Assembly: GCA_902779865.1 (NCBI GenBank)
Contig: CACZDG010000003.1
Location: forward strand, 3,200-67,199
DNA from: an uncultured bacterium
GTDB taxonomy: Bacteria; Verrucomicrobiota; Kiritimatiellia; RFP12; UBA1067
Direction of reading: 5' to 3'
Length of the DNA stretch: 64,000 nucleotides
Shown here: one piece after another, positions 4,925 to 57,814 of the stretch
How the letters are laid out: each line of letters opens with the position of its first letter
How positions within the stretch are numbered: position 1 is the stretch's first letter
Translations under genes and position numbers: made by a program
Notes under the pieces: model-generated
The model's input: only the letters and a program-made list of their open reading frames with translations
Told to the model about the DNA's origin: nothing
Database searches by the model: none

Positions 4925-4957
4925 TGTAACGTTCCTTGGATTTCCGCTCGGCAACGC

Positions 4958-8339: not shown

Positions 8340-8386
8340 TGGAGCCGGCAGAGGGATTCGAACCCCCGACCAGCGGTTTACAAAAC
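8340..8386. repeat. att repeat, left copy (displaced 3' part of tRNA-Thr)
   Basis: TGGAGCCGGCAGAGGGATTCGAACCCCCGACCAGCGGTTTACAAAAC is identical to 57677-57723. Confidence 0.95.
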
Positions 8387-8584
8387 ATGCCATGGACGTG
8401 AAACTTGAAACACGTTGAACACGTGGAGCAAAATCTCGCGTTATATGAACACTTCGCACACATAGAGCACGGTTTGTCAGCACCCGTGTCAGCACGCGCC
8501 AACTACTAGGGGCTGTTCGCAGGGCATTGTACCACGCCGGAAAACCTACCGAAAAACTTTTTTTAACTTTTTTTCGGTAGGTGC

Positions 8585-8613
8585 TTGCATATGCTAGGAG
8601 TTTGTGGTATCAT
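8585..8613 (+). promoter_or_regulatory. early rightward promoter TTGCAT-17-TGgTATCAT
   Basis: -35 at 8585-8590, extended -10 at 8605-8613, about 30 nt upstream of the first early gene (RBS AGGAGA). Confidence 0.55.
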
Positions 8614-8919: not shown

Positions 8920-9091
8920 CCCCATTTGCTTCAAGTACAGGGGGCGCGTCCTGGCTTTGAGCCCGGAGACATCGCTCAAGATCAGAAAGATCGCCGAGGA
9001 CGGAGGGAAGAGCGTGGACAGCGTTCTTTCCACCCTTCTCGAAAAGGCGCAATGCGTCGGTAACGGTCTTTTTTTGCCCGCTAGGTGCTAG
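8906..9091 (+). CDS. hypothetical early protein, RHH-like
   Basis: Beta-strand ICFKY followed by two helices (SLKIRKIAEDGG / SVDSVLSTLLEKA). Good G/C at third positions. Confidence 0.45.
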   Translation: MSKASPICFKYRGRVLALSPETSLKIRKIAEDGGKSVDSVLSTLLEKAQCVGNGLFLPARC

Positions 9092-9115
9092 CACTTGTTA
9101 GCGAGAAGGAGAGAA

Positions 9116-9331
9116 ATGAAGGAGAAAGCAAAAACGGCAGGGAAACGCGGCGCGGGCGGCGCGGCGGCGGCGCGGGTCGAGGGCGGCGCGAACAAGGTGT
9201 TCGTGGGCTTCTGGACCACGCCGACCATGAAGGCCGCGATCAACACCCGCGCGAAGATCGACCGCAAGAGCGCGTCCGCGCTCATTGACGAGATCATCAC
9301 GGACTGGCTGTGCGGGAGGAGGCGCAAGTGA
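9116..9331 (+). CDS. ribbon-helix-helix (CopG/Arc-like) DNA-binding protein
   Basis: KVFVGFWTTPTMKAAINTRAKIDRKSASALIDEIITDWL fits a strand-helix-helix pattern. AAGGAGAG RBS before MKEKAK. Confidence 0.55.
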   Translation: MKEKAKTAGKRGAGGAAAARVEGGANKVFVGFWTTPTMKAAINTRAKIDRKSASALIDEIITDWLCGRRRK

Positions 9332-9546
9332 CGTGCCAATACTACACCGACCGCGAGCTGGCCGAGCTTCTCGGCGTAAGCGTGAGCCTCGTCCGCAAGA
9401 TGGCGAAGGACGGCCCCTCGCGTCGCGGGCGCGGCGTCCTCGACATCCGGCTCATCCACCACTTCAAGGTGGGGGACATGCGCCGGTGGGACATGCAGGC
9501 GACCAAGAGCCTTTTGGGGATTGCGGATGCTCCGCAGCCCCGGTAA
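9328..9546 (+). CDS. excisionase-family HTH DNA-binding protein (Xis/AlpA-like)
   Basis: YYTDRELAELLGVSVSLVRKMAKDG...FKVGDMRRW. GTG start overlaps the upstream stop (GTGA) and follows GGGAGGAGG. Confidence 0.6.
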   Translation: MTCQYYTDRELAELLGVSVSLVRKMAKDGPSRRGRGVLDIRLIHHFKVGDMRRWDMQATKSLLGIADAPQPR

Positions 9547-44284: not shown

Positions 44285-47200
44285 ATGCAGCAGATTTTCC
44301 ACATGCGCGGCGAGAACGGCAAGGACTATGACGTTCCCGAGAACGAGATGGAGGAGTTCAAGCAGTATGTGCCGAACGCCATGCGCGTCAACTCGCACTT
44401 CGGGAAGAACGGGAAGACATACGACGTTCCCGAAAACGAGACGGAGGAGTTCAAGCAGTATGTGCCCGACGCGCAGCCGATGCGCCGCTACTCCTTCTCC
44501 GACGGCTCCACCCGCGACTTCACCGTGCCGGAGCTTGCGAAGTTCCTGCGCTCCGACGAATACCGCAAGGGCGAGAGGTACGCCAAGGACAGGGAGGCGG
44601 ACGAAAAGGCGATGGCCGACTGGCAGCGCAGGCGCGACGCGGCGCAGGCCGCCGTGCCGTCGGAGTTGCAGCCAAGGGGTTTCGGCTCCGCGCTGACCCG
44701 CAACATGCTGTCGGCGGAGGGCATACGCGAAACGGCGGAAGACAGTCCTTCCGCGTGGCTCTACGGCTTTTTCAACGATGTTGCAAACTCGTTCGTCGGC
44801 GGCATAGGCAGCGGAAGCGGCAAAATCACCGAAGCCACGGGGCACCTCATCGGCAACAACGCCGTCGGCAACGCGCTCGTGGAAGAAGGCCGCGCGGGAC
44901 AGCAGGCCATCAGACAGGCGCTACCCACGGACATGGCCCCGAAGACGGGCAACGCCGTGGTGGACAAGGTGGCGGACGTAGGCAGGGGCGTGGCGAGCGT
45001 GACGGGCGAGTTCCTGCCAGCCGCCATTCCCGGCGTAGGGCAGGCATACGCCGCAAGTACGCTAAGTGCTGGGGCCGTGAACCGCATGAACCAGGTGTAC
45101 GACGCCGCGAAGGGAAACGGCTTTTCGGACGCGGCCGCGAGCTCGCTTGCATTTGGCGCGGGCGCGGTGGACGCCTTGCAGAACATCCTTCTGATGAAGG
45201 GTTTTAAGGGCATTTGGAACGGCGCGGAGAAACAGGCGGCGGACGCCGTGAAGCAGTCGCTGGTGAAGAAACTTACGGTCGATACGCTCAAGACAGGCGC
45301 AACGATGGGCGCGGGCGGCATGGCACAGGACGTGGTGGACCAGAACGTCGGCATCGACAGGGAGGGCAACGTGAGCGCGGTGCTCCCCTACGACATACGC
45401 CGCACGGCGGAGGTGGGGATTGATCAGTTCCTCGAAGGAGGGGCGTTCCACCTCGTCAACACGGGTGTACATGCGGTGAAGAGACGCATAATAGACGTAA
45501 AGTGGGAGGACGACGCAAGAAGCGATGGCGCGGAGGCGGCGCGACGCGCACTTGACGCGCCGGAGGGACGCGCCCTCGTCATGTGCAACAACCCGGAAGC
45601 CGCCAAGAAGATTCTTGAGGCGCGGTCGCAGGGCAAGGACGTTAGCCGAAAGATGCTGGAGGATTTGGGCATTCCCGTGGACGTCGCGCCAAGCAAGACG
45701 GACAGAAACGCGCTTGCGGACGCGATGATTGGCGACTACCGCGCCTACAAGGAGTGGCAGAGGCGGCTTCCAGACGCGGAGCAGTCAGCCGCGCTGAACA
45801 CGGAGATCGCCGGGATAGGCGTGGAGGTCGAAGAGAATGGCGAGATGACGGAGACGGCGTCGCTCATCCGCCAGGGGGTGCTTTCCAAAATCAAGGACGC
45901 GAAGGAACTTGACGACCCGAAGCGCAGGGCGGACTTGGTGTACGAGGCGGCGAAGGGGCTTCTGGGCGACAACGTGGGAATCGAGGGTCAGCCGCTCACG
46001 CCGCCGGAGCCCCCCGCAGAAACGCCGAAAAACGCCCCTGTGAGCGCTCCGCCGCCGGAAGGCACAACCACGCCGCCGGAACCGGCGGAGCCGCCACAGC
46101 CAGCGGAAGCCCCCGAATCCGCCACGCCAGAGCCCAAGCCGGAAACGCCGAGTCCCGTGTCGCCTGCGGAAGCTGGCGAAACCCCTGCGGAGCACTCGCG
46201 GCGAATCATCGAAGAGGGGCGCAGGAACCTTGCCGCGTCCCCGAACGCGAAGACCGTCAAGACCGGCAAGAAGGACGCCACCGCCACCATCTACACGCCG
46301 ACGGACGGCACTGGCGCGTTCAAGGTGACGAGAAAGACGTTCACGCACGGGTTCCGCGGCCCCAACAGGGCCGACAACGAGGCGGTGAGCCAGCACCTGG
46401 GCGAAACGCTCGACGGCTCGCTCGCACTCCCGGAGCATGGCACGGACGGCACGCGCTTCCGCATGTCTGCGGTCAAGATCGGCGGCGAGGACGCCCACGT
46501 GCTTTTCACGATCAACAAGGCCGGGAGCGTGACGGACGTTGACGTGCTGAAGGGCCTGAACGCAAAACGAAACCCCGAAGGGACAAAGCTAAGCACGTCA
46601 GAGACGTTGGCCGCCGGTACCTTCGAGGTGTCGGAAGGCAGTATAGCAGATTTCGACCGCGTTTGGCAAGAGCAATTCAAGCCCGGAATAACGAAGCCGA
46701 AAACCGTCAAGGCCGACCCGAAGAAGGCCGCGAAGGCCGTTGAGGGTTTCGTGGCGACCGACCCCACGCGCAAGACGCTGATGCACGTCCACCACGACCA
46801 CGAGGAAGGCGTGGCCGTCGCGACAGACGGGCGCGTCTTGATCGCCACGAAACACGGCTACGACAAGAACGCAAAGGACGACCCCGAAGCGCCCTACCCC
46901 AACTGGCGGCAGGTAATCCCGGACTACGACGGCAAGACGTACAGGACATTCACGGAAGAGTACGTGGAGGGCAAGGGCAAGTGGAGGAAAAAGGCCGTCG
47001 ATCTTCCCGTCCACACGCTGGAGACCGACCCCGCCGCCGTATCGGCCGCCTGCAAGAAGGCCGCGTCCCTCGCAAAGGCCGTAGGGCACGAAGGCGCGGT
47101 GTACGCCTCGCTCGAACTCCCGGACGGCGGGCGTGTCATGATGGACCCCGCCTACCTCCGCAAGGTGGCGGACGCGATGGGCGCGAACGGCATCACGGAG

Positions 47201-50200
47201 ATCAGGGCCGTCGCGCCGAACAGGCCGATCCTCGCGAAAAACGCGGACACCACCATCGTCGCCATGCCGCTGCGCGGAGGCACGACCGATGCGCCCACGG
47301 GACGCGTCTCCGGCAACCCGCTCGTCATCGACGCCATGACGGGCCGCATTCTGACAGCGCCGGAGCGCAGCGACAACACGGCGATGACAAGCCGCAAGTG
47401 GGCGGACGAGCTGAAAAAGGAGATCGCGCGCGCCCGCGACGACGCGATGGCCGACGCGCGCACCGAAGACCTGTTCAAGAACATCGCGGGCGCATGGAAG
47501 CGCGGCGAGACGGACGCGAAGGCCGTGTTCGACGGCTATTCGGGCGATGGCGCGTGGGAAAAGCTCCCGCAGACGGAGCGGACGCGGTTCGAGGAGTGGT
47601 TCGCGCTGAAGGACGAGAACGCCCTCGCGGAGAAAGTCGCCGAATACGTCGCCGACCAGTTCCCAGACCTCAACCGCTGGCGCAAGGACCTTCCGCGCGA
47701 GGTCGCGAAAATCGAGAAGCGAATCGCAGCCGAGGACGAGATAGACGCCCTCATGGCCGGCGAGCCGCCGCCGGCCCCCGCCCCCAAGCCCGTCAACAAG
47801 GGCAAGGGCAAGGAAGCCGTCCAGGCGGCAAAGGCGCTCGGTTCGCCGGACGCGGCAAGCCCGCTCCGCCCCGCGCCGAAGGGCGCAAAGCTTGTGCAGG
47901 GCGAGTTCGACGGCATGGGCGGCGAGACGGCGGCAAGGCCGGAGGCTACCGCGCTGAAAGGCAAGTCTGACCTCTCCAAACCGGACAACGTAATAGCCCT
48001 TCGCGAATATGTGAAGGGTGTCACGCCCACGCCCATTCCACAAAGACTTTCTGACGGGAAGCCAAAGACCGCACTTGAATGGTTCGAGGCAAACATGGTA
48101 GGCAAGACGTTCTCGTTCGACATTCCGGGGTACGGGCACCGCGAGTTCACCGTGAAGCCCGGACACATAGGAACTCTAGTTTGCAGGGGCGGGCGGAATG
48201 CCGACGGCACAAGGATCGTGAAAGGACGCATTGCAAAGGCGAACGGAGACATAGCCCGCGCGTTTGAGATGGTTCGCAATGGCGAGGTTTCCGAAGCGGA
48301 CGTGGAGGGATGGGATCCCCTTCGCGCAAAATCACTCCCTCTCGTTCCAGAGGTGTTCAAGTCGTTTGATGTGGCCCTTCACGAAAAAGACGCACACGGA
48401 AACGACATCGTAATCCTCGCTAAGAAGTTCGTGAACAAGAAGGGTCGCCCAAACGTCGTCGTCATGAAGTTGGTAAACGACAACGTTTCGATAGGTCCGC
48501 TGTCATCGCACGTTGGCGACCTGACTTTCTCCTGGCTGAAAAATAAAGACCTCCTCCTCACGGATGAGGGGAAGGTCTATGACGGGGCTGCGAATGACTC
48601 CGCAAGTCGCAGTCCACTTAAAGGGGATAACGCGGAGGGCAACTCCCCTGAAAGCGGCGATATGATACCACGTCCCGGCGGCGAAGTCAAGGGCGGCGCG
48701 GAAAATTCGCAAGAGACGAAAAAGACGCCAGACCCGCAGAACGCCGCCCGCAACCCGTCCGCGCTACGCGACCCCGCGTTCGTGAAGTGGGCGAAATCGA
48801 AGGGACGCGCCCCGACGCCCTTCGCGCGACGCGCCTACGACGCCGCGCAGCTCCGCGCCGCCGTCCCCCTCTACCGCAACGTCTTCCCCGACATGAACAT
48901 CGTGATCCACGACAAGGTGGAGGATCCCGCGAAGTGGACGGCCGACCACCCCGACGGAACGCAGAAGATGATTGGCGGCGTAGGCGGAGCGTCGAACATG
49001 GGCATAAAGGGAGCGGCAGACGCCGAAGCGCTGGAAAAGGCCGGCAAGGACCGCGAGGAAATCTGGCGCAAGACAGGCTGGTGGCGTGCCAAGGATGGCA
49101 AGTGGCGCTTCGAGCTGCCGTCCACCAAGATGAAGGACGCAAGGGCGCTTTATGCTGCGCTCATCGAAGGACACAACGAGACGACGCTCGGAAAGATACT
49201 GGACGCACCCGAACTGTTCGAGGCGTATCCGCAGCTGAAAGACACGAAGATCATCCTTTCGCCGGAGCATAACGACGAAACTGGAGGATGGTATAACCGT
49301 ATCAAGAACGAAATCGTCCTCTTCGACGCCGGCCTCGTTTCCTTAAAGGACATGCCGTCACACGAAAGGGATCTTCGAGACACCTACCAGAGAGTGCTTG
49401 ATTCGGACGAGTTCGTCCGCCGTAGATTCGCAGACATGGATGCGTTCGGCATCGAGCATGGCACAGTCGAGGAGGAGCGCGAGTACGCGAGGTGGTGGAT
49501 CGAACGGCAGGATAAAGGAATCGCCAGGACCAACGAGACGAAAATCCGCGACCTGGCGAACGACAGGAGGGTTTGGAGCGTATTCGGAAAGATAATCCAC
49601 GAGGTACAGCATGCAGTGCAGCACATCGAGGGCTTCGCGACGGGCGCAAGCGGCAATGAGGATGGATACAGCCGTTTCGCCGGCGAGGTTGAGGCACGCA
49701 ATGCTGCGCGGCGTGAAGCCATGTCGCCGGAGGAGCGCGCGGCCACGCCGCCATGGGCGAGCGAAGATGTTGCGGAGGGCACGCAGATAATACGACGCAT
49801 GATCGTCGATCCGAAGAGCGGCGAAGTCCTCGGATGGTACACGCCGCAGTTCAAGGAGGTGCACCTCAACCCCGGCGCGACCGTGGAGACGCTCGCCCAC
49901 GAGATGCTCCACGCCGTGCAGGACTGGGCCAAGACGAACAGCCCCAAGCTCGCGAAGGCGCTGGACGACATCGCCCGCGACTGCCCGGAACGGCTCAAGA
50001 AGCGCATCATGCGCGCATACGGCGTAGTCTCGCCGGAGACCATCATGAAGGAGTGGGGCGCGTTCAACTTCATGGGCGGCCCGGAGGGCGGCAGGGGCAG
50101 GGGCGGCGCGGCCCTACGCGACGAGCTGGCCAAGCGCGAGAACGCCGCGTGGCTCGGGCGGTTCTGGGACGCGGCGAAGGACGCATGGAAGGACATGGCC

Positions 50201-53119
50201 GCGAAGATGGGCGGCAACCGCATCGACCTCGACGCGATAGACTCCAAGACCCCGCAGGAGGCCATGGACTTCCTCGCCCGCGCGTTCGCCGAGGGCGGCA
50301 CCGTCGGCAAGGCCAATCCCCCCGGCAAGTCCGTGCGCCCCGCAATCGACATGACGAAGCCGCTCTCCTTCGCTGAGAAGTGGGACGTCAACCTCCACGA
50401 CTACCGCAGCCCCCTGAAGTGGCTGCGCGACGAGATGGCGAAGCGCGGCTCGTCGTTCGCCGACGACACCGACTTCTACGAGGCCGCACGGCTCCAGAAG
50501 GGATACGACCAGGCCGCCGTCAACGACGCGAACCGCCGCCTGAAGGAGTACACCGGCAAGCTCAAGAAGCTCGGCGTGAAGCACGAGGAGGTCGTGGAGT
50601 TCATGCAGGCCCAGGCCGCCAAGGACCGCAACGCCATGATCCTGGAGAAGTTCGGGCGCGAGAACGGCTCCGGCATGACGGACGCGGAGGCCGCGCGCAC
50701 GATCAAGGCGTTCGAGGACGCGGGCAAGGGCGACGCCCTGCGCGAGATCTCGGACTTCCTCCTCGACATGCAGCGCGAGGGATTGCAGTACCGCGTCGAA
50801 ACGGGGCTCCTCTCCGCAGAGGACGCGCAGAGGATGGCCGACCGCGAGCCGTTCCACGTCCCCTTCCGCTCCGCCGTCGATCCAGAGACCGGCGACTACG
50901 TGCAGTGGGGCAGCGACAAGGCCCTCGAAAAGGCCGAGTTCAAGGAGGCGAAGGGCCGCAAGACGCTCGCCGACGACGTGGTCGGCTGGATGTTCTCCGA
51001 GTTCATCGACGCCCACACTCGCGGCAACGAGAACCGCATACGCAAGATGGTCGCCGACGCGATGCGGCTCAACGCGAAGTCCGGCGTCGGCAAGATACTC
51101 AAGGGCGCCCGCAAGCAGAGCGCATACGACTTCTCCGCCGGAGAGTACAAGACCGGCGCGGACGGCGACGGGCGCACGGGCGACAAGGCGAAGACCGCGA
51201 TTGTGGACGATCCGCGCTTCCGCGAATCCCGCAAGAACGGCGACGGCGGGCGAAAGAACGTCCTCGCCTTCAAGGAGGGAGGGCGGACGCACTACATCGA
51301 GTTCGCCGAGGGCGAGCGCGGCGAGCGGTTGCAGGCCGCCGTCAACGGGCGCGACCTCAAGAGCATGGGCAAGCTGTGGAAGAGGGGAATGCGCTTCTGG
51401 TCGTCCACCGCAACCGAGTGGGCGCCCACGTTCGCGCTGCGCAACTTCGCGGCGGACAACATCGACGTGTTCGGCAACTACATCGGCGAGCACGGGATCG
51501 TCAAGGGCTCGGCGTCCTACGCGCGGCACCTGAAGAACGCCGCCGCGCTCACCCCCGCCATAACGCGGTACATCGCCACCGGCGACATCCCGCAGGGCGT
51601 CGGCGGCGAGTGGATAAGGCGCTACGAGCAGTCCGGCGGCTTGATCGCGGGCTACGCATCCGAGGGCTACGGCGAGATCACGGCGAAGATCGACGCCGAG
51701 ATCGCCAAAAGCGGCAGGTCGAAAGGCGCGGCAATCATAAACGCCGTGAAAACAGCAATAACGTCACCTTTGAAATCCGTCCGGAAGGTGCTGGGGAAAG
51801 TCTGGTATCCGATTGACGTCCTGAACCGCTACGCCGAGCTGCTGACGCGCGTGTCCGCGTTCAGGACGCAGTGCGAGAACGGCATGACCGACCACAAGGC
51901 CGCGCTCTGGAGCCGCGAATCGACAGTTGACTTCAACGAGAAGGGAAACTTCACCGGCATCACCAACGGCCTGTGGATGTTCTCCAACTCCACGCTCGGC
52001 GCGTCCGCCCGCCAGCTGAAGAGCATTTTCAAGTCGAAATACGGCTGGCAGACCGTCGCCGCATTCGTCGGCTACGGACTCGCCGAGGGACTGCTCGAAG
52101 CCCTGATGAACGGCGACGACGAGGAGCGCGAGGCGAAGGGCGAGGGCGCGGGAAAGGACGTGTCCGAGTACACCCGCGCCAACTCGCTCTACGTGCGCAG
52201 GGGAGGCAGGGTGTACCGCGTCCCGTTCCACGCCGGGCCGTTCTCATACATCAAGTACGCAGGGAACTGCGCGGCACGCGTCATGCTGGGGAAGATGAAG
52301 CCGGAGGACGCCGCGAAGGAACTTGGTTGGGAGGCCCTGTCGCAGCTCTTCCACTACACGGGAGTCGGAGACGTGAACATGCAGTCCCAGAGCGGGAGGT
52401 TCGCGGACGATGCCGCCACATTCGCCGGAACGGCCGCGCCGTCCCTCGCGCAGCCGCTCGTGCAGGGCGCGTTCAACATCGACCACGCGGGGCGCAGCAT
52501 CTACAACGAGGGCTTCCCCGGCGACAGGACGCCCCGCTCCGCGCAGGGCCGCCGCTCCACGCCAGGATGGGCGAAGGACGCGGCGGCGTGGCTCAACGAG
52601 GCCACGCGCTCCGAGGGGCACGAGACCGGCTACATCGACCTCCCGCCGGAGATAATCAAGATGGCCGGCGAGGCCGTCGGAAAGAACCTCCTCCGCGACG
52701 TGATGAACGCCGGAACGGTCTGCGCCATGGCGTTCGGCGACGAGAAGTACGACGTGCGCAACGTCCCCGTCGCCCGCGACTTCGTGCGCGCCGTGGACGG
52801 CAACGACCGCCGCTACAACGACGCCAGGAAGGAATACGAGGCCAACGCGGACTACCTCAAAAAGCACGCCCGCGAGATGTCCGCAGAGGAGCGCAGGGCC
52901 TACGTCGAGAAGTTCCCCCACGCCGCGTTCGTCGCCAAGGGCAGGCAGCGGCTGGACGGCCTGGAGACGGAGATACGCCGCCTCCGCAAGATGGAGGACG
53001 GCTTCGCGTTCGTGAAAGGAAAAGCCGTTCCCCGCGAATGGCCGGAGGAACGGCTTGAGGCGTTCAGGAAGCGCCGCCGCGAGCTTCAGGCGCTGTTTCT
53101 CAAGGAGATGGGCATGTAG
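44285..53119 (+). CDS. 2944-aa polyvalent virion protein (beta-clamp-like module, two HExxH modules, long helical C-terminal part)
   Basis: Single uninterrupted ORF with consistent G/C third positions. Motifs are detailed in the findings. Confidence 0.85.
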   Translation: MQQIFHMRGENGKDYDVPENEMEEFKQYVPNAMRVNSHFGKNGKTYDVPENETEEFKQYVPDAQPMRRYSFSDGSTRDFTVPELAKFLRSDEYRKGERYAKDREADEKAMADWQRRRDAAQAAVPSELQPRGFGSALTRNMLSAEGIRETAEDSPSAWLYGFFNDVANSFVGGIGSGSGKITEATGHLIGNNAVGNALVEEGRAGQQAIRQALPTDMAPKTGNAVVDKVADVGRGVASVTGEFLPAAIPGVGQAYAASTLSAGAVNRMNQVYDAAKGNGFSDAAASSLAFGAGAVDALQNILLMKGFKGIWNGAEKQAADAVKQSLVKKLTVDTLKTGATMGAGGMAQDVVDQNVGIDREGNVSAVLPYDIRRTAEVGIDQFLEGGAFHLVNTGVHAVKRRIIDVKWEDDARSDGAEAARRALDAPEGRALVMCNNPEAAKKILEARSQGKDVSRKMLEDLGIPVDVAPSKTDRNALADAMIGDYRAYKEWQRRLPDAEQSAALNTEIAGIGVEVEENGEMTETASLIRQGVLSKIKDAKELDDPKRRADLVYEAAKGLLGDNVGIEGQPLTPPEPPAETPKNAPVSAPPPEGTTTPPEPAEPPQPAEAPESATPEPKPETPSPVSPAEAGETPAEHSRRIIEEGRRNLAASPNAKTVKTGKKDATATIYTPTDGTGAFKVTRKTFTHGFRGPNRADNEAVSQHLGETLDGSLALPEHGTDGTRFRMSAVKIGGEDAHVLFTINKAGSVTDVDVLKGLNAKRNPEGTKLSTSETLAAGTFEVSEGSIADFDRVWQEQFKPGITKPKTVKADPKKAAKAVEGFVATDPTRKTLMHVHHDHEEGVAVATDGRVLIATKHGYDKNAKDDPEAPYPNWRQVIPDYDGKTYRTFTEEYVEGKGKWRKKAVDLPVHTLETDPAAVSAACKKAASLAKAVGHEGAVYASLELPDGGRVMMDPAYLRKVADAMGANGITEIRAVAPNRPILAKNADTTIVAMPLRGGTTDAPTGRVSGNPLVIDAMTGRILTAPERSDNTAMTSRKWADELKKEIARARDDAMADARTEDLFKNIAGAWKRGETDAKAVFDGYSGDGAWEKLPQTERTRFEEWFALKDENALAEKVAEYVADQFPDLNRWRKDLPREVAKIEKRIAAEDEIDALMAGEPPPAPAPKPVNKGKGKEAVQAAKALGSPDAASPLRPAPKGAKLVQGEFDGMGGETAARPEATALKGKSDLSKPDNVIALREYVKGVTPTPIPQRLSDGKPKTALEWFEANMVGKTFSFDIPGYGHREFTVKPGHIGTLVCRGGRNADGTRIVKGRIAKANGDIARAFEMVRNGEVSEADVEGWDPLRAKSLPLVPEVFKSFDVALHEKDAHGNDIVILAKKFVNKKGRPNVVVMKLVNDNVSIGPLSSHVGDLTFSWLKNKDLLLTDEGKVYDGAANDSASRSPLKGDNAEGNSPESGDMIPRPGGEVKGGAENSQETKKTPDPQNAARNPSALRDPAFVKWAKSKGRAPTPFARRAYDAAQLRAAVPLYRNVFPDMNIVIHDKVEDPAKWTADHPDGTQKMIGGVGGASNMGIKGAADAEALEKAGKDREEIWRKTGWWRAKDGKWRFELPSTKMKDARALYAALIEGHNETTLGKILDAPELFEAYPQLKDTKIILSPEHNDETGGWYNRIKNEIVLFDAGLVSLKDMPSHERDLRDTYQRVLDSDEFVRRRFADMDAFGIEHGTVEEEREYARWWIERQDKGIARTNETKIRDLANDRRVWSVFGKIIHEVQHAVQHIEGFATGASGNEDGYSRFAGEVEARNAARREAMSPEERAATPPWASEDVAEGTQIIRRMIVDPKSGEVLGWYTPQFKEVHLNPGATVETLAHEMLHAVQDWAKTNSPKLAKALDDIARDCPERLKKRIMRAYGVVSPETIMKEWGAFNFMGGPEGGRGRGGAALRDELAKRENAAWLGRFWDAAKDAWKDMAAKMGGNRIDLDAIDSKTPQEAMDFLARAFAEGGTVGKANPPGKSVRPAIDMTKPLSFAEKWDVNLHDYRSPLKWLRDEMAKRGSSFADDTDFYEAARLQKGYDQAAVNDANRRLKEYTGKLKKLGVKHEEVVEFMQAQAAKDRNAMILEKFGRENGSGMTDAEAARTIKAFEDAGKGDALREISDFLLDMQREGLQYRVETGLLSAEDAQRMADREPFHVPFRSAVDPETGDYVQWGSDKALEKAEFKEAKGRKTLADDVVGWMFSEFIDAHTRGNENRIRKMVADAMRLNAKSGVGKILKGARKQSAYDFSAGEYKTGADGDGRTGDKAKTAIVDDPRFRESRKNGDGGRKNVLAFKEGGRTHYIEFAEGERGERLQAAVNGRDLKSMGKLWKRGMRFWSSTATEWAPTFALRNFAADNIDVFGNYIGEHGIVKGSASYARHLKNAAALTPAITRYIATGDIPQGVGGEWIRRYEQSGGLIAGYASEGYGEITAKIDAEIAKSGRSKGAAIINAVKTAITSPLKSVRKVLGKVWYPIDVLNRYAELLTRVSAFRTQCENGMTDHKAALWSRESTVDFNEKGNFTGITNGLWMFSNSTLGASARQLKSIFKSKYGWQTVAAFVGYGLAEGLLEALMNGDDEEREAKGEGAGKDVSEYTRANSLYVRRGGRVYRVPFHAGPFSYIKYAGNCAARVMLGKMKPEDAAKELGWEALSQLFHYTGVGDVNMQSQSGRFADDAATFAGTAAPSLAQPLVQGAFNIDHAGRSIYNEGFPGDRTPRSAQGRRSTPGWAKDAAAWLNEATRSEGHETGYIDLPPEIIKMAGEAVGKNLLRDVMNAGTVCAMAFGDEKYDVRNVPVARDFVRAVDGNDRRYNDARKEYEANADYLKKHAREMSAEERRAYVEKFPHAAFVAKGRQRLDGLETEIRRLRKMEDGFAFVKGKAVPREWPEERLEAFRKRRRELQALFLKEMGM

Positions 53120-54704
53120 CCCTGTCCGTCCCCTCCTCCATCATCCTGACGCGGCGCGCGCGCATCGTCGCGTAGTCCACGGCGATGCGCCCCGCGAGCA
53201 GGTTCCGCGCCCACCCCGCCGGGGCCATGCCGTACGCCCACGCCGCCTTCCGCGCCTTCACGGCGTGGTACGCCGAGAGCCTTACGCCCCCGACGTCCAC
53301 GCCGTCAGGCCACTTCCGGCAGAGCGCCTCCACCTCGCGCCAGTCGCCGTCCGTGAACGGAACGGCGTCCAGCGCGGCGATCAGGCGCTCCTCGTCCGTC
53401 GGAGGGCGGCGGCTCACCGCGCGCCCCCCCTTCCCCGACACGCTGGCATGCCAGGCACGGAGCGCGCGCCGCGTCTCCCGCAGCCGCTCGTGCGCCTTGC
53501 ACCCGCGCAGGATCCCGCCAACGAGCCGCAGCGGCGTGACGTTCGCCGTCCCGGCCGCCCGCGCCACGCGGTAGCGCATCACGCGGTCCATCCGCACCCC
53601 GCACACGGACGCGAACTCCGGCGAGCCGTCCTTCGACTCCTCCGCGATCTTCGCGTAGTCGTCGCCGCAGAGCGCGGAGGGCGGCAGCGAGGCGTTCACC
53701 GCCTCCCACCCCACGCGGTCCATCTCGCCCTCGATCACGCGCACCGCCTCGCGCACGGCCTGCACCGGCGCCGCGTCGGCGGGCGCGGGCAGGGCGGCCG
53801 GGGCGCCCTGCGTCCCCTGCGCCCCGGCGAGCGCGTGGAACACGAGGTCCGCCGTCGCCGCCTCCTCGCCCTTGCGGTACTCCACGAACGCCTCCGCGCC
53901 CGTCACGCAGTCGCGCCGCACCATGAACACGGCCCCCGTCCCCAGCAGGACCGCCCGCCGCGCCTCGTCCGAGCCGACGCACATCAGCCCGAAGGCGTGG
54001 AGCGGGTGCCACACGCCGGGGAACGACGGCATCGGCGCGATCACGCACGGAAGCCGCCCAGCCGTCCCCAGGAGCCGCGCCGTCGCGATGTCCGCCCCGA
54101 CGGGACGGAGCCACGCCTCCGCCACCGAGCGCTCCACGAACGCGGCCACCCCGCCGAGGTCGTCGCGCCCGAGGACGCGCCGGAGGTTCGACTCCAGGGC
54201 GCGGCGCACCGCCTCCGCGTCCGCCTCCTCGTAGGGGAGGATGTGCGGCGCGGACTTCAGCACATACCCGCGCAGAAGCCGCTCCTTCAGCGTCCTCGTC
54301 GCCCACTGACGGAACTGGACGCCGCGCCGCGAGTTCACCCGGTAGCCGACCGAGATTATCGCGTCGAGGTTGTAGCACCGCACCGTCCGCGTCACCGTGC
54401 GTTTCCCCTCGATGTCAACTATTTGAAATTCTTGAATAGTTGATTTTCTGTCTAGTTCACCATCATCGAATATGTTCTTGAGGTGTGTGTTGATATTCGG
54501 CGTGTTGCACCCAAACAGCACTGCCATTTGCTTTTGCGTGAGCCAGACGGTCTCGCCGTCCATCCGCACATTTATCTTCGCGGCGTCCGTCGGCTGATAG
54601 ACGACGACCTCGCCGTTGCTGTTCCCGTCGAGCACGGCGGCGGAGCCGTCGCCCGTATTCTGCGCGTTTGTATAGCGGGCGCGCGCCGCGTTTTTCTTGC
54701 TCAT
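53100..54704 (-). CDS. RhuM-family N-terminal domain fused to ~380-aa unknown Ala/Arg-rich domain
   Basis: TVWLTQKQMAVLFG...HLKNIFDDGEL...YNLDAIISVGYRVNSRRGVQFRQWATRTLKERLLRGY is the RhuM core. The C-terminal frame is confirmed by near-uniform G/C third positions. Confidence 0.75.
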   Translation of the reverse strand: MSKKNAARARYTNAQNTGDGSAAVLDGNSNGEVVVYQPTDAAKINVRMDGETVWLTQKQMAVLFGCNTPNINTHLKNIFDDGELDRKSTIQEFQIVDIEGKRTVTRTVRCYNLDAIISVGYRVNSRRGVQFRQWATRTLKERLLRGYVLKSAPHILPYEEADAEAVRRALESNLRRVLGRDDLGGVAAFVERSVAEAWLRPVGADIATARLLGTAGRLPCVIAPMPSFPGVWHPLHAFGLMCVGSDEARRAVLLGTGAVFMVRRDCVTGAEAFVEYRKGEEAATADLVFHALAGAQGTQGAPAALPAPADAAPVQAVREAVRVIEGEMDRVGWEAVNASLPPSALCGDDYAKIAEESKDGSPEFASVCGVRMDRVMRYRVARAAGTANVTPLRLVGGILRGCKAHERLRETRRALRAWHASVSGKGGRAVSRRPPTDEERLIAALDAVPFTDGDWREVEALCRKWPDGVDVGGVRLSAYHAVKARKAAWAYGMAPAGWARNLLAGRIAVDYATMRARRVRMMEEGTDRATCPSP

Positions 54705-54873
54705 GGTATCTCAACTCCATTCGCAGTTTAGACAAAAGCCCCGCCGAATGTGGTTGAGATACGCGCCAACGGTTGACGCGGGCCGACATCCGGCAGGGCA
54801 ACGGTTGAATTGCCGTTAGTTCCGTGCGAGGAACAGGTATCTCAACTCCTATTATTCCTCGGAACGACACAAA

Positions 54874-54902
54874 GTATATCACACCTCGCCCCGCCGCGCA
54901 AG
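54874..54902 (-). promoter_or_regulatory. promoter TTGCGC-17-TGaTATACT for the RhuM-fusion gene
   Basis: -10 at 54874-54879, -35 at 54897-54902 (reverse-complement coordinates). Tandem TTGGTGCGC repeats lie just upstream. Confidence 0.5.
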
Positions 54903-54949
54903 AGGGAATTTTCACGTTTTTGCGCTTGGTGCGCTTGGTGCGCCCCGCG

Positions 54950-55546
54950 CTACGACGCAGACGGTTTTCTTCCGTTGCAGTTCTTCTTCGCGGCGATAGA
55001 TTGCTTGGCGCGTGCGACAAAATCGGCTATCTCCGTGTTGTTGTCGGCGACATTGCTTTTGTCGCACAACTTGCCGAACCAAGCACGAAATGCGGCGTAC
55101 TTTATACACCCTTTCAGGCGCACGATGGCGCAGATATAGCAAAGAAACGGCCATCCGGCTGCAATCAGCACCGGAAGAAAGAGCAGGGGCGACCATTTGG
55201 CCACTGCGGGACAATCAACCCACCCGGACCAGAGCAGGAACACGCCGACCAAGGCAAACACGACGTCAAGCACTCGCCAGAACAGACCCGGTGAGTTCTC
55301 TCCCTTTTCCTGGCGGCGCTTGATTGCGACAGCTCTCTTCCCTATTCGCCGTATGTCGTCGTCCTTGATGTATGAGCGCAGTTCTTCGCTGAAGTTGTTT
55401 GCGATGATCTTGTCCGGATCGACCTCGATTCCGCTGAAGAACCGGCTCATGATGGCAGGCGCGACAGGCAGCAGAAGGTTTGCGCCTATCGAGACGCAAA
55501 CCACATCTGAAGCATGGGCAACGAAGTTGAACGCGGGAAGGCTCAT
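54950..55546 (-). CDS. 198-aa membrane protein (soluble N-domain, 2 TM helices, basic tail)
   Basis: GGAGG RBS. TM helices FWRVLDVVFALVGVFLLWSGWV and LLFLPVLIAAGWPFLCYICAIV. Lower GC3 than the surroundings. Confidence 0.7.
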   Translation of the reverse strand: MSLPAFNFVAHASDVVCVSIGANLLLPVAPAIMSRFFSGIEVDPDKIIANNFSEELRSYIKDDDIRRIGKRAVAIKRRQEKGENSPGLFWRVLDVVFALVGVFLLWSGWVDCPAVAKWSPLLFLPVLIAAGWPFLCYICAIVRLKGCIKYAAFRAWFGKLCDKSNVADNNTEIADFVARAKQSIAAKKNCNGRKPSAS

Positions 55547-55563
55547 CCTGTCTCAACGGCCTC

Positions 55564-56088
55564 CTATGCGACCTTCAGCATTGCCTGCGCAAGTTCGCGC
55601 AGCAGCCTGGCCGTGTCGGGGGCGTTCACGCAGGCGATTGCCTTCTTGTCGCCGTCATCCCTCTCGAAGCGGTACATCTTGTCGTCGAACACGGCGAAGT
55701 GCGAACCGAGCTGCGCGAACTCGCGCGACGTATGGATCGTGTCGGCCCCGTGCTCGCGAAGGGCGGCGGCCACGACAGAGTCCGGCGGAACGTCTTCGGG
55801 ATGCTGCACGATGAAGCGCACGTCCACTCCGCGCGAGATCGCCGCGCGCACGGCGTCGGCAAGGCCCTTGCCCCCCCATACGGTGTTGGAGATGCGGCCG
55901 CAGTAGACATAGGCGGACTTGTTCGCGTGCGCGAACATTTCTTCGAGCAGAATTCTCGCGTGCGCGGGGCTGCTGTTCTCAATGAGGTTCGGCGAATCAA
56001 TGGCAATGAAACGCCGCACCATATACCGGAACGGATCCATGTCGCTATGGATTTCGTCGCTCATCGTTTGCTCCTCTAGTTTCTCCAT
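55564..56088 (-). CDS. hypothetical cytoplasmic protein, possible degenerate PLD/Nuc-fold (start 56088 leaderless, or 56064)
   Basis: ...AHARILLEEMFAHANKSAYVYCGRIS...AISRGVDVRFIV...GSHFAVFDDKMY. The family assignment is weak. Confidence 0.7.
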   Translation of the reverse strand: MEKLEEQTMSDEIHSDMDPFRYMVRRFIAIDSPNLIENSSPAHARILLEEMFAHANKSAYVYCGRISNTVWGGKGLADAVRAAISRGVDVRFIVQHPEDVPPDSVVAAALREHGADTIHTSREFAQLGSHFAVFDDKMYRFERDDGDKKAIACVNAPDTARLLRELAQAMLKVA

Positions 56089-56095
56089 GGCGTCT

Positions 56096-56125
56096 ATTGT
56101 ACCACGACGCCGCCCCCGGGGTCAA
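56096..56125 (-). promoter_or_regulatory. promoter TTGACC-18-TGgTACAAT, 7 nt from the ATG at 56088
   Basis: -10 at 56096-56101, TGG at 56102-56104, -35 at 56120-56125. An ACCGAAAAA/TTTTTCGGT palindrome at 56130-56150 lies just upstream. Confidence 0.55.
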
Positions 56126-56457
56126 GCGCACCGAAAAAGTTTTTTTCGGTCGCCAACCCGTTCAAATCCACCGTCTTGAAATTCAACGTTTTCAAAAACG
56201 CGCCCGGCCGGCGGCTGTCTGGCCGACCATCTGGACGGCGGTTTTCAAGGTGATTCAATCCGCACACGTTGAACGCGAAGAGCCTGTCTGTACAAGGCCG
56301 AGAAGCGATTCTTCAACACACATATATATGTTTTCGTTCCCTCGCGCGTACGCGCGCGTAGTAGTATTTACCCAAATATACTTTAAGTATATTTGGGAAA
56401 TGCTACGTGTTCTTCTTGGTTTTTTATATACGCGCGCGCGAGGTTGAAAACGGGCGT

Positions 56458-57615
56458 TCACCCCATTTTCAGCATGGCTGGCGTCGCCGCCTTTATGATC
56501 TCGTCCTCGGCCGCCTCGAAGGAGTAGCGGTCGGTGATGCGCAGGCCAAGCGTGTGCCCGAGAACCGCGCTTGCGGCGTCGATGCCGAAGCGGCGGCGTA
56601 TCTCCGTGGCGCACGTGTGGCGCAGCTGGTTCGGGTGCCAGTGCGGCACGTCCGCGCGCTCTGCGGCGCGGGAGATCGCTCGCTGGTACGCCTCGACCTT
56701 CCACTTCTCGCCCACGCTGCGCCCGACGGTCTGCCTGGGCGAGAACACGTAGCCGTCGCCCTCGTACTTCGCGAGTATGGCCTGCGCCTTCGGCCCGAAC
56801 ACGATCACGCGCGGCTTGTTGCGGTGCTTGTTCTTGTGGTTCCCCGGCCTGTACGCCCAGATCTTGCCGCGCCTCTCGACGAGCGGCCACGCGAGCTGGC
56901 ACATCTCGTCCGGCCTCGCGCCGCACAGCCGCTGGACGCGCACCATGTCGGCGAGCGGCTCGGCCAGCTCCGCGCACGTCTTCTTCACGTCCGCGTCCGG
57001 CACGGCGGCCACGGGGCTGCACTCCTTCACGTTGCCGCGTCCGCGCTTCAGCTGCGAGATCGCGGTGGCCTCCGCCTTCACCTGCGCGGAGATTATGCGC
57101 TCGTCGAGGGCCCACGCGAACATGCGCTTGACGAAACCGAGGTACTTGTTCACGGTGGTGCGCACGTACCCCTTCGCGGCGAGCGCGTTGCGGTACTCTA
57201 TCATGTCGGGGTGCGTCATTGTCTCGACGGGGCGCGTCCCGAACATTTCGCGGAAGAGCCTCATGCCGCGAACGCTGTCGGCGGCCTCCTTCGACCCGCC
57301 GGAGTAGTACGTCTCCGCGTGTGCGGCCCACTTGTCGATCACGTCGTTCACGGTGAACGCGGGCGCGTCGATTCCCGCGTCCGCCTGCCTTGTCATGTTC
57401 TCCCACAGACGCCACGCCGCGCTCTCGGCAATCGACCTGGTGCTTGCACTTGCGGGTATTCTCTCGCCGGTGTACGGCATTGTGAGGACGTGGTCTTTTC
57501 TTGTTTTTTCGCCAGGATTCGCGACTCGCCAGTGCCACGCGCCGTGGGACTCCCACAGCGTGCCGGGCAGGGCGGCCCGCCTTCTCGTGTCAGCGTTTTT
57601 GTCAGCACCTGTCAT
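56458..57615 (-). CDS. int: tyrosine recombinase / phage integrase
   Basis: C-terminal HPNQLRHTCAT...VLGHT...RY catalytic motifs. Start set at MTGADKN (GGAGA RBS). Adjacent to the att repeat and tRNA. Confidence 0.85.
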   Translation of the reverse strand: MTGADKNADTRRRAALPGTLWESHGAWHWRVANPGEKTRKDHVLTMPYTGERIPASASTRSIAESAAWRLWENMTRQADAGIDAPAFTVNDVIDKWAAHAETYYSGGSKEAADSVRGMRLFREMFGTRPVETMTHPDMIEYRNALAAKGYVRTTVNKYLGFVKRMFAWALDERIISAQVKAEATAISQLKRGRGNVKECSPVAAVPDADVKKTCAELAEPLADMVRVQRLCGARPDEMCQLAWPLVERRGKIWAYRPGNHKNKHRNKPRVIVFGPKAQAILAKYEGDGYVFSPRQTVGRSVGEKWKVEAYQRAISRAAERADVPHWHPNQLRHTCATEIRRRFGIDAASAVLGHTLGLRITDRYSFEAAEDEIIKAATPAMLKMG

Positions 57616-57676
57616 TTCATGTGTCTCCGTTTCATGCCCTAAGTGCGTTTCGCCCAATGTTTGCAAGGGTTTTCGA

Positions 57677-57723
57677 TGGAGCCGGCAGAGGGATTCGAAC
57701 CCCCGACCAGCGGTTTACAAAAC
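57677..57723. repeat. att repeat, right copy (forms the 3' part of the intact tRNA-Thr)
   Basis: Identical to 8340-8386. Confidence 0.95.
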
Positions 57724-57751
57724 CGCTGCGCTACCACTACGCTATACCGGC
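57677..57751 (-). tRNA. tRNA-Thr (anticodon UGU), 75 nt with encoded CCA
   Basis: Hand-folded. Acceptor GCCGGTA/TGCCGGC, D arm GCGT-AGTGGTA-GCGC, anticodon arm GCGGT-TTTGTAA-ACCGC, T arm GGGGG-TTCGAAT-CCCTC, discriminator T, then CCA. Confidence 0.9.
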
Positions 57752-57775
57752 CGCTTATTCGGGAAAGCGCCTATC

Positions 57776-57804
57776 ATTATACAATAATGCGGCGACAAAG
57801 GCAA
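57776..57804 (-). promoter_or_regulatory. tRNA-Thr promoter TTGCCT-17-TGtTATAAT
   Basis: -10 at 57776-57781, -35 at 57799-57804. About 18-nt leader to the tRNA 5' end. Confidence 0.6.
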
Positions 57805-57814
57805 TACCACAATC

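Follow-up and report, generated by a model that had tools for sequence, protein, structure and literature searches.

Comparison with relatives shows that the open reading frame at 53100..54704 on the minus strand of the window (the whole stretch of 64,000 nucleotides analysed here) consists of two conserved, translationally coupled prophage genes, which a single additional G in a G6 run fuses here. Our best overall explanation, which is tentative and which we regard as possible rather than probable, is that the two genes form a module gated by its leader RNA, an antisense immunity switch of the kind known from P1 c4 and P4 CI that would control an antirepressor-like, entry-phase protein. The RhuM-like gene and the small ORF are a constant part of a temperate phage family of ~49 kb in uncultured Lentisphaerae. 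The pair is flanked on one side by an integrase-proximal hotspot with variable cargo and on the other by the end of the virion/polyvalent-protein gene; the RhuM-like gene, the small ORF and ~240 bp of upstream region are constant across relatives. In the window the cassette upstream is a PLD-like gene with a membrane-protein gene. Upstream cargo in relatives includes an NYN gene or other pairs of PLD-like and membrane-protein genes (sometimes two in tandem), and relative L022 has nothing there. In L001, similarity to the window spans 53163 to 54942, including the upstream region, and the upstream gene is different. The features of the module are as follows.

54873..54901, minus strand: module promoter, with -35 box TTGCGC (54901-54896), a 17-nt spacer and extended -10 element TGaTATACT (hexamer 54878-54873)
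54705..54866, minus strand: leader RNA of ~160 nt, from a putative transcription start
54837..54846, minus strand: 5' copy of the 10-nt core, GUUGAGAUAC, in the apical loop of hairpin 1, with GGAG just before it
54734..54799, minus strand: long hairpin in the predicted folds, its closing stem pairing 54799-54786 with 54751-54738, followed by UUUU (54737-54734)
54753..54762, minus strand: anti copy, GUAUCUCAAC, unpaired in the 3' internal loop of the long hairpin; perfect complement of both other copies
54706..54718, minus strand: SD GGAG (54718-54715) and the 3' core copy (54715-54706), which overlaps the SD and ends 2 nt before the ATG at 54704
54255..54704, minus strand: RhuM-type N-terminal domain, aa 1-150 (Pfam, PADLOC, AF2 secondary structure, Foldseek)
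54390..54524, minus strand: hypervariable low-GC mosaic segment, aa ~61-105, with recognition helix and wing (DNA identity, GC, alleles)
53814..54242, minus strand: domain A, aa ~155-297, alpha/beta, common to the short RhuM-N proteins P0016-P0019 (HMMER, AF2)
53436..53771, minus strand: domain B, aa ~312-423, helices and a beta-hairpin (homologue and HMMER searches, AF2)
53424..53430, minus strand: G7 homopolymer, G6 in the nearest relative (L005); the extra G fuses the 429-aa frame with the downstream gene
53100..53417, minus strand: small partner gene, 105 aa, GTG start at 53417, separate and translationally coupled in every relative
53100..53119, no strand: 20-bp convergent overlap with the 3' end of the 2944-aa polyvalent protein gene (44285..53119, plus strand)

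As a first reading from the sequence only had proposed, a promoter of its own and a structured leader precede the coding part of the module. The stretch TGTGATATA(C/A)T and the TTGCGC box are kept in 8 of 8 distinct leaders, and the leader folds with an MFE of -64.8 kcal/mol (z = -3.2). Diverged leaders (type 2) have the same folded architecture, with an equivalent long-hairpin stem of other sequence, and in the folds of both types all three core copies lie in loops. Exact matches to the core occur in the window only at the three leader sites. With GGAG before it, the 5' copy is a putative decoy of the ribosome-binding region, and the long hairpin with its U-run is a candidate terminator- or attenuator-like element for a stable antisense RNA. 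The leader matched no Rfam family, including C4. A simple promoter scan missed the module promoter because its -35 box matches at only three of six positions.

Judged from the leader alignments, the three core copies change together across 7 core variants, and the remaining leader is nearly invariant. The anti copy can form perfect duplexes of 8-10 nt with both other copies in all 8 leaders, which carry 7 different cores. Of the 10 pairs formed by the 5' copy with the anti copy, 6 are compensatory, and the covariation score was reached in 0 of 500 shuffles. Across the alignment 93-94% of cells pair, compared to at most 46% with the partner slid; all these statistics are inflated because the segment register was chosen by complementarity. 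Among the leaders of L001, L005, L011 and L024, the 30 core columns hold 9-12 differences and the 139 other columns 0-1, and six of the seven differences between the L015 and L022 leaders are in cores. Because nearly all substitutions that separate otherwise identical leaders sit in the three matched cores, we infer with moderate confidence that a trans action of the anti RNA is also probable and that the core sets specificity types. L001 and the window have nearly identical early control regions and differ in core and in helix-turn-helix (HTH) allele, a contrast that resembles the P1/P7 pattern.

The P1/P7 immI region has the order a1b1 - c4 - a2b2 - icd/ant. Details of a1b1 and a2b2 and of P1/P7 heteroimmunity were reportedly described by Citron and Schuster in 1990 and 1992 and by Heinrich and colleagues in 1995. 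Like P1/P7 c4 (Rfam C4, RF01695), the antisense element of the leader precedes its target gene and shares strand and transcript with it. Its complementary target falls in the ribosome-binding region of that gene, and another matching copy, comparable to a1b1, comes before the antisense element. As in P1/P7, phages sharing the remaining control region differ in the matched elements, and the downstream protein, like ant, has a predicted N-terminal fold of the Bro-N/antirepressor kind. Unlike c4, the leader lacks a sequence or structure match to RF01695 and has one 10-nt element, whereas c4 has two (a', b'). The module also has a small ORF downstream instead of an icd-like leader ORF, its protein is a RhuM-type head with unknown C-terminal domains rather than pRha/ANT, and its host phylum is Lentisphaerae rather than Proteobacteria. 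In P1, c4 RNA represses Ant synthesis (PMC8546580). In P4, CI RNA (seqB) pairs with seqA and seqC (PMC4825925), and, as in the module, one transcript holds a 5' target, an antisense element in a stable hairpin with a terminator-like feature, and a 3' target (PMC4825925). P4 CI has no homology to the module leader and causes premature transcription termination of replication genes; in contrast, the 3' target of the module overlaps the spacer from SD to AUG, pointing to a block at translation.

Applying the logic of P1/P7 c4 and P4 CI to the leader, with moderate confidence, gives the following putative switch. Gating by the leader RNA is fairly likely: the exposed anti element would pair with the SD-AUG target and turn translation off, and its duplex with the 3' copy would cover the SD through the start codon. 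The anti element could also pair with the decoy copy in the 5' hairpin loop. Termination at the U-run, RNA processing and trans action would be further steps. The ~429-aa protein may be an antirepressor-like or establishment-phase effector that would be made on entry into a cell without matching RNA and kept silent both in the lysogen and during homo-immune superinfection. Its co-translated partner or moderator may be the small protein.

According to AF2 secondary structure, the N-terminal domain is built from strands, a helix-turn-helix, a beta-hairpin wing and two helices. The sequence-only reading had placed a RhuM core in the N-terminal part, in agreement with matches to Pfam PF13310 (E=7e-22 for aa 88-150, covering only positions 1-63 of the 252 in the profile) and to PADLOC PDC-S05/S23 (E down to 1.8e-53, aa ~30-151); by these matches, the RhuM-like part is aa ~30-150 only. 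Relatives have weak Crp/MarR HTH matches in this stretch. Foldseek against BFVD returned Bro-N, KilA-N and antirepressor proteins (E 1.5e-4 to 1e-2) without giving aligned residues, from an AF2 model with pLDDT <50 at aa 1-46 and 91-105 of the N-domain. The module protein resembles Bro-N/KilA-N phage antirepressors (e.g., P22 Ant-type) in its predicted N-terminal fold (a medium to low confidence model), its variable C-terminal half and its place in the lysogeny-side region of a temperate phage. Unlike them, it has no ANT/KilA-C domain, which counts against the antirepressor reading. To our knowledge, RhuM-type proteins have no known antirepressor activity. An antirepressor role also leaves the hypervariable recognition helix unexplained.

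The hypervariable segment has 40-75% DNA identity to relatives, a GC of 0.33-0.47 and at least 7 alleles among 11 proteins, whereas the gene outside it is mostly 85-100% identical, except at aa ~11-30 and in the linker at aa ~298-311. An AT-rich patch at 54420-54480 had been taken to suggest a domain fusion. The alignments indicate that it is a mosaic, recombining, hypervariable helix-turn-helix and wing; it lies inside the RhuM N-domain, and a domain junction was rejected on that ground. The sharp composition change is real (GC of 0.72-0.80 across 53100-54300 versus 0.47-0.53 near 54300-54600; GC3 of 0.9-1.0 from aa 151 on and 0.50 at aa 61-90), but its break marks this segment rather than a fusion.

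The canonical RhuM family (PF13310; PADLOC candidates PDC-S05/PDC-S23) has the N-terminal ~120 aa in common with the module protein, including the motifs ETVWLTQxQMA and YNLDAIISVGYRVNSxxGxxFRQWAT. The module protein, of ~429 aa, lacks profile positions 64-252, and two rare domains, A and B, take the place of the canonical C-part. The module gene also differs in being a fixed temperate-phage gene outside R-M or defence islands, with a coupled small partner and an RNA leader. The C-terminal region had been described as lacking a recognisable motif, and the profile and structure searches proposed for it found no well-known domain: aa 151-534 had no match in Pfam, NCBIfam, PHROG, PDB-sequence or Foldseek-PDB searches, and profile-profile comparison of the C-terminal sequence with the canonical RhuM C-part found no similarity. 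An exhaustive HMMER search of 1.84 billion proteins found domain A in five representative clusters only, and its model (pLDDT ~80-87) had no fold or profile match. Relatives of domain A occur close to ArdA and PcfJ in a different mobile element, and such surroundings are typical of genes that act at entry. Domain B is found only in the present phage lineage. The small partner has independent homologues of 99-105 aa (P0012-P0015) and an AF2 model of five helices and one hairpin (pLDDT 67).

The main rival, which we consider rather unlikely, is a prophage RhuM-type anti-phage defence system (abortive infection or exclusion) with an RNA-braked toxin. The HTH head would sense invader DNA, domains A and B would form a new effector, the small protein would be an antitoxin or regulator, and the leader would be a cis-acting or antitoxin-like RNA brake on the toxic protein. 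The layout recalls type III ToxIN, with a promoter, a regulatory RNA, a weak terminator and the protein gene in succession on one strand. ToxI itself is made of tandem repeats and binds to the toxin protein; the module instead has a single element complementary to the ribosome-binding region of the mRNA. A defence role is consistent with the PADLOC PDC-S05/S23 matches (E 1e-53), with hypervariable recognition segments, which are typical of arms-race sensors, with the tight coupling of the small downstream gene, and with the adjoining hotspot of NYN, PLD-like and membrane-protein cargo. An earlier proposal made RhuM the toxin of R-M/PrrC loci (PMC3710099), and a full-length protein of PDC-S05 gave E. 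coli ~1000-fold protection, with T7, T5 and T4 as the phages (bioRxiv 10.1101/2024.09.26.614923). However, the common ground with that tested family is the N-terminal ~120 aa only, the effector part is absent, and PADLOC and Pfam gave no match for the small partner, domain A or domain B. The module is constant in every related phage while true cargo varies, and short domain-A relatives lie beside anti-restriction genes in a conjugative-type element, not in defence islands. Threefold-matched, core-restricted diversification is also hard to explain by a purely cis brake.

All compensatory changes in the cores are exact Watson-Crick complements with no G-U intermediates, so DNA-level repeats are possible, and the DNA-binding domain encoded here has a recognition helix that is hypervariable. 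The three elements could be DNA operators (two direct, one inverted) of a co-evolving sequence-specific protein, with no RNA-RNA pairing, but this is improbable. HTH allele and RNA core are uncorrelated, which counts against operators and against the antisense switch alike: the window and L005 have the same core and different alleles, and L022 and L023 have the same leader and different alleles. The site is a non-palindromic 10-mer, and the conserved early region showed no further variable protein that binds DNA. In both diverged leader types, one copy always lies between SD and AUG and its complement always lies in the exposed loop of the hairpin with the U-run, and this too speaks against operators.

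The ORF at 53100..54704 (minus strand, ATG start) encodes 534 aa, as first read. Ten of 10 close homologues end at 428-438 aa, and a separate ORF of 98-105 aa lies downstream in L001-L005, L009-L012, L015-L017 and L022-L024. Deleting one G from the G7 run in silico gives a 429-aa protein ending in ...VSGKGGAR*, like P0001, with a GTGA stop/start overlap with the 105-aa ORF (53100..53417). With G7 instead of G6, the two genes are in one frame in the window; the small gene still has its GTG start and its purine-rich stretch. The extra G may be a true mutation or a homopolymer sequencing error. The earlier description of a RhuM head fused to a 380-aa unknown domain holds in that a RhuM module is joined to motif-less sequence; the rest is two domains plus a separate gene, and the ORF in related prophages is intact but shorter, which speaks mildly against one long gene. 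One genuine 534-aa fusion protein in a three-gene accessory operon with the upstream cassette is very improbable. In its favour, the ORF is open as sequenced and no terminator-like site was found from the 198-aa gene to the module promoter, making upstream read-through possible. Against it, coverage of aa 151-534 by any database protein stays at or below 73%, two genes are present in every relative, independent 99-105-aa proteins exist, the difference is one G in a homopolymer, and the module promoter is its own and conserved. An obligate three-gene unit was rejected, given the other cassettes or none upstream in relatives. A terminator scan between the convergent genes found no terminator-like site, as had been noted; the 20-bp overlap of their 3' ends that had been described is present and measures 14-20 nt in relatives.

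The RhuM-like gene lies inside a prophage, between integrase-side cargo and a polyvalent-protein gene, and it has the same position in all relatives. A 47-bp direct repeat (8340-8386 and 57677-57723), which is the 3' part of a tRNA-Thr gene (57677-57751), marks both ends of a prophage of about 49.4 kb. The gene is thus found in a prophage, not in an R-M operon or defence island, the location expected of the RhuM family. Among the relatives, the only organism name is that of an uncultured Lentisphaerae MAG. On the minus strand, the order from the integrase is the 174-aa gene, the 198-aa gene, and a 534-aa ORF, followed by the convergent giant gene:

56458-57666, minus strand, tyrosine integrase
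55564-56088, minus strand, 174-aa protein, PLD-like, with weak DUF7931-type signals
54950-55546, minus strand, 198-aa protein with two predicted membrane helices
53100-54704, minus strand, 534-aa ORF with a RhuM-type N-terminal domain (the head)
44285-53119, plus strand, giant gene, "large polyvalent protein" with LPD38 (aa 2624-2829) and LPD23 (aa 1569-1616)

The 174-aa protein also gave weak PLDc_2/YjeF_N signals and is 34% identical to a DUF7931 protein in the related locus L011, and relatives of the giant gene have weak Zeta_toxin and LPD3 matches. Two copies of the motif TGTCAGCAC at 8475-8495 and a single copy at 57600-57608 are plausibly integrase arm-type sites.

Annotation pipelines would label this locus as a 534-aa "virulence protein RhuM", but it is not a virulence factor, and probably not a single protein. 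The ORF and its 20-bp overlap with the 2944-aa giant gene, both described in the sequence-only reading, are present in the sequence. Of the 11 proteins retrieved with aa 151-534 as the query, 10 are 428-438 aa long (69-96% identity, approximately 70-73% query coverage) and end, when aligned, near aa 428-437 of the window ORF. On the relatives' contigs, a separate ORF of 98-105 aa comes next and shares 14-20 nt with the convergent giant gene. Four stand-alone database entries for this small protein (P0012-P0015) are 77-88% identical to the C-terminal 105 aa of the window ORF. Coupling of the large and small genes occurs in three junction variants. In the related locus L005, the junction DNA is GGGGAAGGGGGGCGCGCGGTGAGCC, and the large-gene stop TGA overlaps the small-gene GTG start. 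Compared to L005, the window has one additional G at 53424-53430, and in-silico removal of one G yields a 429-aa protein ending in VSGKGGAR and a stop, exactly as in database protein P0001. The other two junctions have an ATG start with an 11-nt overlap, or an intervening 31-aa hydrophobic mini-ORF. Programmed frameshifting is unlikely because no slippery site is conserved; with three junctions (ATG overlap, 31-aa ORF, and G6 with GTGA overlap), a conserved frameshift at the G-run was rejected. The 534-aa fusion therefore stems from a 1-nt insertion in the homopolymer that is private to the window, or else from an error in sequencing.

A 377-aa protein (P0011) that could be taken for a second truncated form is an artefact produced by a join at 53736 in the ENA scaffold L008 (region 4658-5818). 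This scaffold, the one contig identical to the window, is 100% identical to positions 53736-58392, nothing beyond the breakpoint matches the window, and the breakpoint falls in a stretch of about 80% GC. The mini-ORF (MTGEIVETVVVCLWLMSPLFMELWDCIKGRG) lies between the large and small genes in L009 (9290-9385), L011 (9305-9400), and L015 (4305-4400), and is missing from the window and L005. The last ~60 nt of the giant gene differ from the relatives, as does the tail of the small ORF. The sole terminator-like hairpin with a T-run downstream of the small ORF is at 52869-52887 (minus strand), about 215 nt inside the giant gene and in antisense orientation; the region has no more terminator-like sites than chance would give (7 observed, 4.7 expected).

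RhuM-family proteins are very common, and their mechanism is still obscure. The RhuM core noticed earlier in the N-terminal part was confirmed by Pfam (PF13310, E=7e-22, 78.4 bits against a cut-off of 33.7, aa 88-150). Two candidate-defence models of PADLOC, PDC-S05 and PDC-S23, align to aa ~30-151 (lowest E 1.8e-53, for PDC-S05), the conserved N-terminal core YNLDxxISVGYRVxS...FRQWAT is present, and the head has at least 7,700 relatives at E <= 1e-10 among the matches listed. The PF13310 alignment covers only profile positions 1-63 of 252, and the canonical C-terminal half (profile positions 64-252) is absent; the head gives way to the new domains at aa ~150 (about 54255). NCBIfam and PHROGs gave no additional match for the 534-aa ORF. 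For aa 151-534 and the 105-aa protein, no known domain was found in Pfam, NCBIfam, PHROGs, or PADLOC, and no match was found in PDB by sequence and profile. Homology of domain A (aa ~155-297) or domain B (aa ~312-423) to the canonical RhuM C-terminal part was rejected (hhalign against 57 canonical C-parts, P >= 0.086), and the large protein has no Pfam match to an ANT/KilA-C type C-terminal domain and no recognisable repressor partner. Its architecture is new for the RhuM family, to which the large protein is related by the head and not over its full length.

The large protein was modelled with AF2 from 14 sequences (mean pLDDT 65). In the head (aa ~30-143), three strands lead into a helix-turn-helix (H57-64, H68-80), after which come a long beta-hairpin (89-111) and a pair of helices. 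Domain A (aa ~160-297) is modelled as alpha/beta (pLDDT ~80-87), and a Pro/Ala linker joins it to domain B (aa 312-423), which has helices and one hairpin (pLDDT 70-90). Foldseek searches of PDB with both AF2 models gave only matches with E > 1 (large-protein best E=1.2). Against viral models (BFVD), matches with E of 1.5e-4 to 1e-2 were to Bro-N, KilA-N, "repressor domain", antirepressor proteins, and phage "virulence protein", with low TM scores and a query model of medium to low pLDDT; judging by names and alignment lengths, they most likely align to the head. No literature linking RhuM with Bro-N was found. HMMER comparison of domains A and B (286-aa query, aa 151-436) against 1.84 billion representative proteins identified five clusters, one being the close family and the other four being short proteins (P0016-P0019, 222-291 aa) with a RhuM head and domain A only, the head being truncated in P0018. 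Domain B and the small protein are restricted to this phage lineage. P0019 is in a mobile element adjoining ArdA and PcfJ genes, and P0016, P0017, and P0019 each have a small ORF immediately before them, abutting or closely adjacent. The locus shows that the RhuM head is a separable helix-turn-helix module that can be joined to wholly different C-terminal domains.

Domain B (53436-53771) and the small partner (53100-53417) have a common predicted order of helix, beta-hairpin, and three helices. They also have a GV(R)(M/L) motif in common, and MAFFT aligned both, which hints that they could be a duplicated module. However, a BLASTP comparison of the two gave E = 3.7, and 42 columns aligned by hhalign gave P = 0.048. 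Neither the large nor the small protein has homology to a toxin or antitoxin family in Pfam, NCBIfam, PADLOC, or PHROGs.

The AT-rich patch had been read as a point of domain fusion. The composition shift is real (GC 0.72-0.80 over 53100-54300 and 0.47-0.53 around 54300-54600; GC3 0.9-1.0 from aa 151 on and 0.50 for aa 61-90), but the patch lies inside the head, away from the true junction. When its DNA is compared with four relatives in sliding windows, most of the gene shows 85-100% identity. Besides the 3' junction, lower identity is found at aa ~11-30, in the linker (aa ~298-311, 78-88%), and at aa ~61-105, where DNA identity falls to 40-75% and GC to 0.33-0.47. This last stretch has at least seven alleles among 11 proteins, spans the recognition helix and wing of the AF2 model, and in relatives gives weak Crp/MarR-type HTH matches. 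The low identity, low GC, number of alleles, and HTH/wing position therefore identify it as a recombining specificity segment, with recognition helix and wing exchanged between near-identical phages. None of the readings considered here accounts for it.

Upstream genes differ among the relatives. Pairs of PLD-like and membrane-protein genes homologous at 25-70% identity are found in L005, L009, L011 (two pairs in tandem), and L015. The same slot holds a 116-aa gene and an NYN gene in L001-L004, an NYN gene again in L023 (the contig ends a little upstream of it), and no gene in L022. A three-gene accessory unit with the upstream cassette, as had been suggested, fails on this variation. Similarity between the window and L001 begins at 54942, upstream of the promoter, though the adjacent genes differ; with the variable upstream genes, this indicates that the constant unit is the leader, large gene, and small gene. 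The upstream genes are exchangeable cargo, and the slot looks like a diversifying hotspot for two-gene, defence-like cargo. The best sigma-70-like promoter of the region (56125-56096) is just before the cassette.

The promoter and structured leader attributed to the RhuM-like gene are both borne out. A conserved TTGCGC-17-TGaTATACT is followed by a leader of about 160 nt before the ATG. The 10-mer GTTGAGATAC, which we term the core, has exactly three occurrences in the 64-kb window, all in the leader:

54837-54846, coding strand, 5' copy of the core
54753-54762, complement of the core
54706-54715, coding strand, 3' copy of the core

Eight distinct leaders of two sequence types carry seven cores (GAGATA, AGAAGA, GAAAGA, CGAATG, GAAAGG, GGAAAG, and GACAAG), and the three copies match within every leader, with the complement forming perfect duplexes of 8-10 nt with either copy. 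In the window, the complement pairs perfectly over 10 nt with the 3' copy, from the last SD base to 2 nt before the AUG, and this is kept across the seven core variants. In three gap-free 13-nt segments, both partners had changed in six of 10 pairs (17 cells), pairing held in 93-94% of cells compared to at most 46% with the partner slid by 1-3 columns, and the covariation score was reached by 0 of 500 shuffles, with the register chosen by complementarity. The 5' copy covaries with the complement likewise. The distribution of substitutions is independent of register choice: L001, L005, L011, and L024 have 9-12 differences in 30 core columns and 0-1 in 139 others, and six of the seven columns differing between L015 and L022 are in cores. 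Diversifying selection appears to act on the specificity bases of the core. MFE folds of both leader types are alike. The 5' copy occupies the loop of a hairpin, and the complement stays unpaired in a 3' internal loop belonging to a long hairpin, after which a U-run comes. The 3' copy also falls in a loop, that of a small hairpin with the AUG in its stem. No Rfam family matched the leader, including C4 (RF01695), when cmscan was applied to 54600-55000 at E <= 1 and to four loci at the gathering threshold, and searches of IMG/VR and JGI metagenomes by DNA pattern and protein for further variants returned only loci already known. The leader is a clean natural experiment: its 10-nt element, matched three ways, comes in seven specificity variants, and the RNA is otherwise invariant.

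Elements termed a1b1 and a2b2 are features of the P1/P7 immI operon. In that operon, c4 RNA represses antirepressor synthesis (PMC8546580), and in P4 immunity CI RNA pairs with seqA and seqC (PMC4825925). Like P1/P7 c4, the leader has a same-transcript antisense element complementary to a downstream ribosome-binding region. As with a1b1 and seqA, a second matching target lies upstream of the antisense element, and the matched elements vary by type between otherwise similar phages. The P1/P7 pattern is fitted by L001 and the window, whose early control regions are nearly identical and whose core and head allele differ. The leader is without homology to RF01695; it is functionally c4/CI-like but outside that RNA family. 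Given this c4/CI design of a same-strand antisense element and two matched targets, we propose that the hairpin RNA keeps the large gene from being translated, acting in cis and probably also in trans. The large protein would be an effector, antirepressor-like or active in the establishment phase, that is made when the phage enters cells without matching RNA, and the small protein its co-translated partner; in this scheme, where transcription starts, how the RNA is terminated or processed, its action in trans, and the activity of the protein are inferred. In its full form, the proposal is tentative and we consider it somewhat unlikely: an undescribed antisense-RNA heteroimmunity system of Lentisphaerae temperate phages, convergent with P1 c4 and P4 CI, that would gate a RhuM-headed effector with a second, independent specificity determinant (the shuffled low-GC recognition helix and wing). 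If it is true, related phages compete through two combinatorial "codes", RNA core and DNA-binding allele, and there is a first functional handle on RhuM N-domains in phages. If the c4/CI-type reading is right, antisense-RNA immunity reaches a new phylum and a new RNA family.

A defence or abortive-infection system is a serious alternative. The head is strongly similar to PDC-S05 and has a hypervariable, sensor-like character, cargo genes adjoin the locus, and RhuM has been proposed as a toxin (Anantharaman et al. 2013, PMC3710099). One RhuM protein is protective, a result for a single full-length PDC-S05 representative (preprint, bioRxiv 10.1101/2024.09.26.614923), but only the head is common to the tested family. 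The module is also constant, not cargo-like, and a purely cis brake leaves the core-restricted diversification unexplained. It is quite improbable that the three leader cores are DNA operators; this reading stands because no G-U pairs were seen among the core pairs, but head alleles do not follow the cores, and the element positions (RNA loops, SD) are kept across diverged leaders. Binding of the three cores by the RhuM-like protein itself was rejected, as head alleles do not track cores. The idea that it is the main prophage repressor, with operators matched to its alleles, is not supported either: phages with different alleles have conserved repeats in the early region, where L001 and the window are nearly identical.

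No divergent CI-type repressor gene was evident in the window's early region. AGGTGCT(T/A)GCA motifs at 8579-8589 and 9083-9093, with T-runs before them, lie ahead of the first two early genes; an RHH-like 78-aa ORF (9095-9331) and an excisionase/HTH-like 78-aa ORF (9310-9546) come after them. The motifs are kept in four related phages and are candidate early promoters or operators. In one MAG, the 124-kb contig CAMKJU010000001 contains the phage region twice (as L001/L007 and L002/L006), one copy beside host genes and the other beside phage early genes. A second or tandem insertion could account for this, as could an assembly made from phage DNA in replication.
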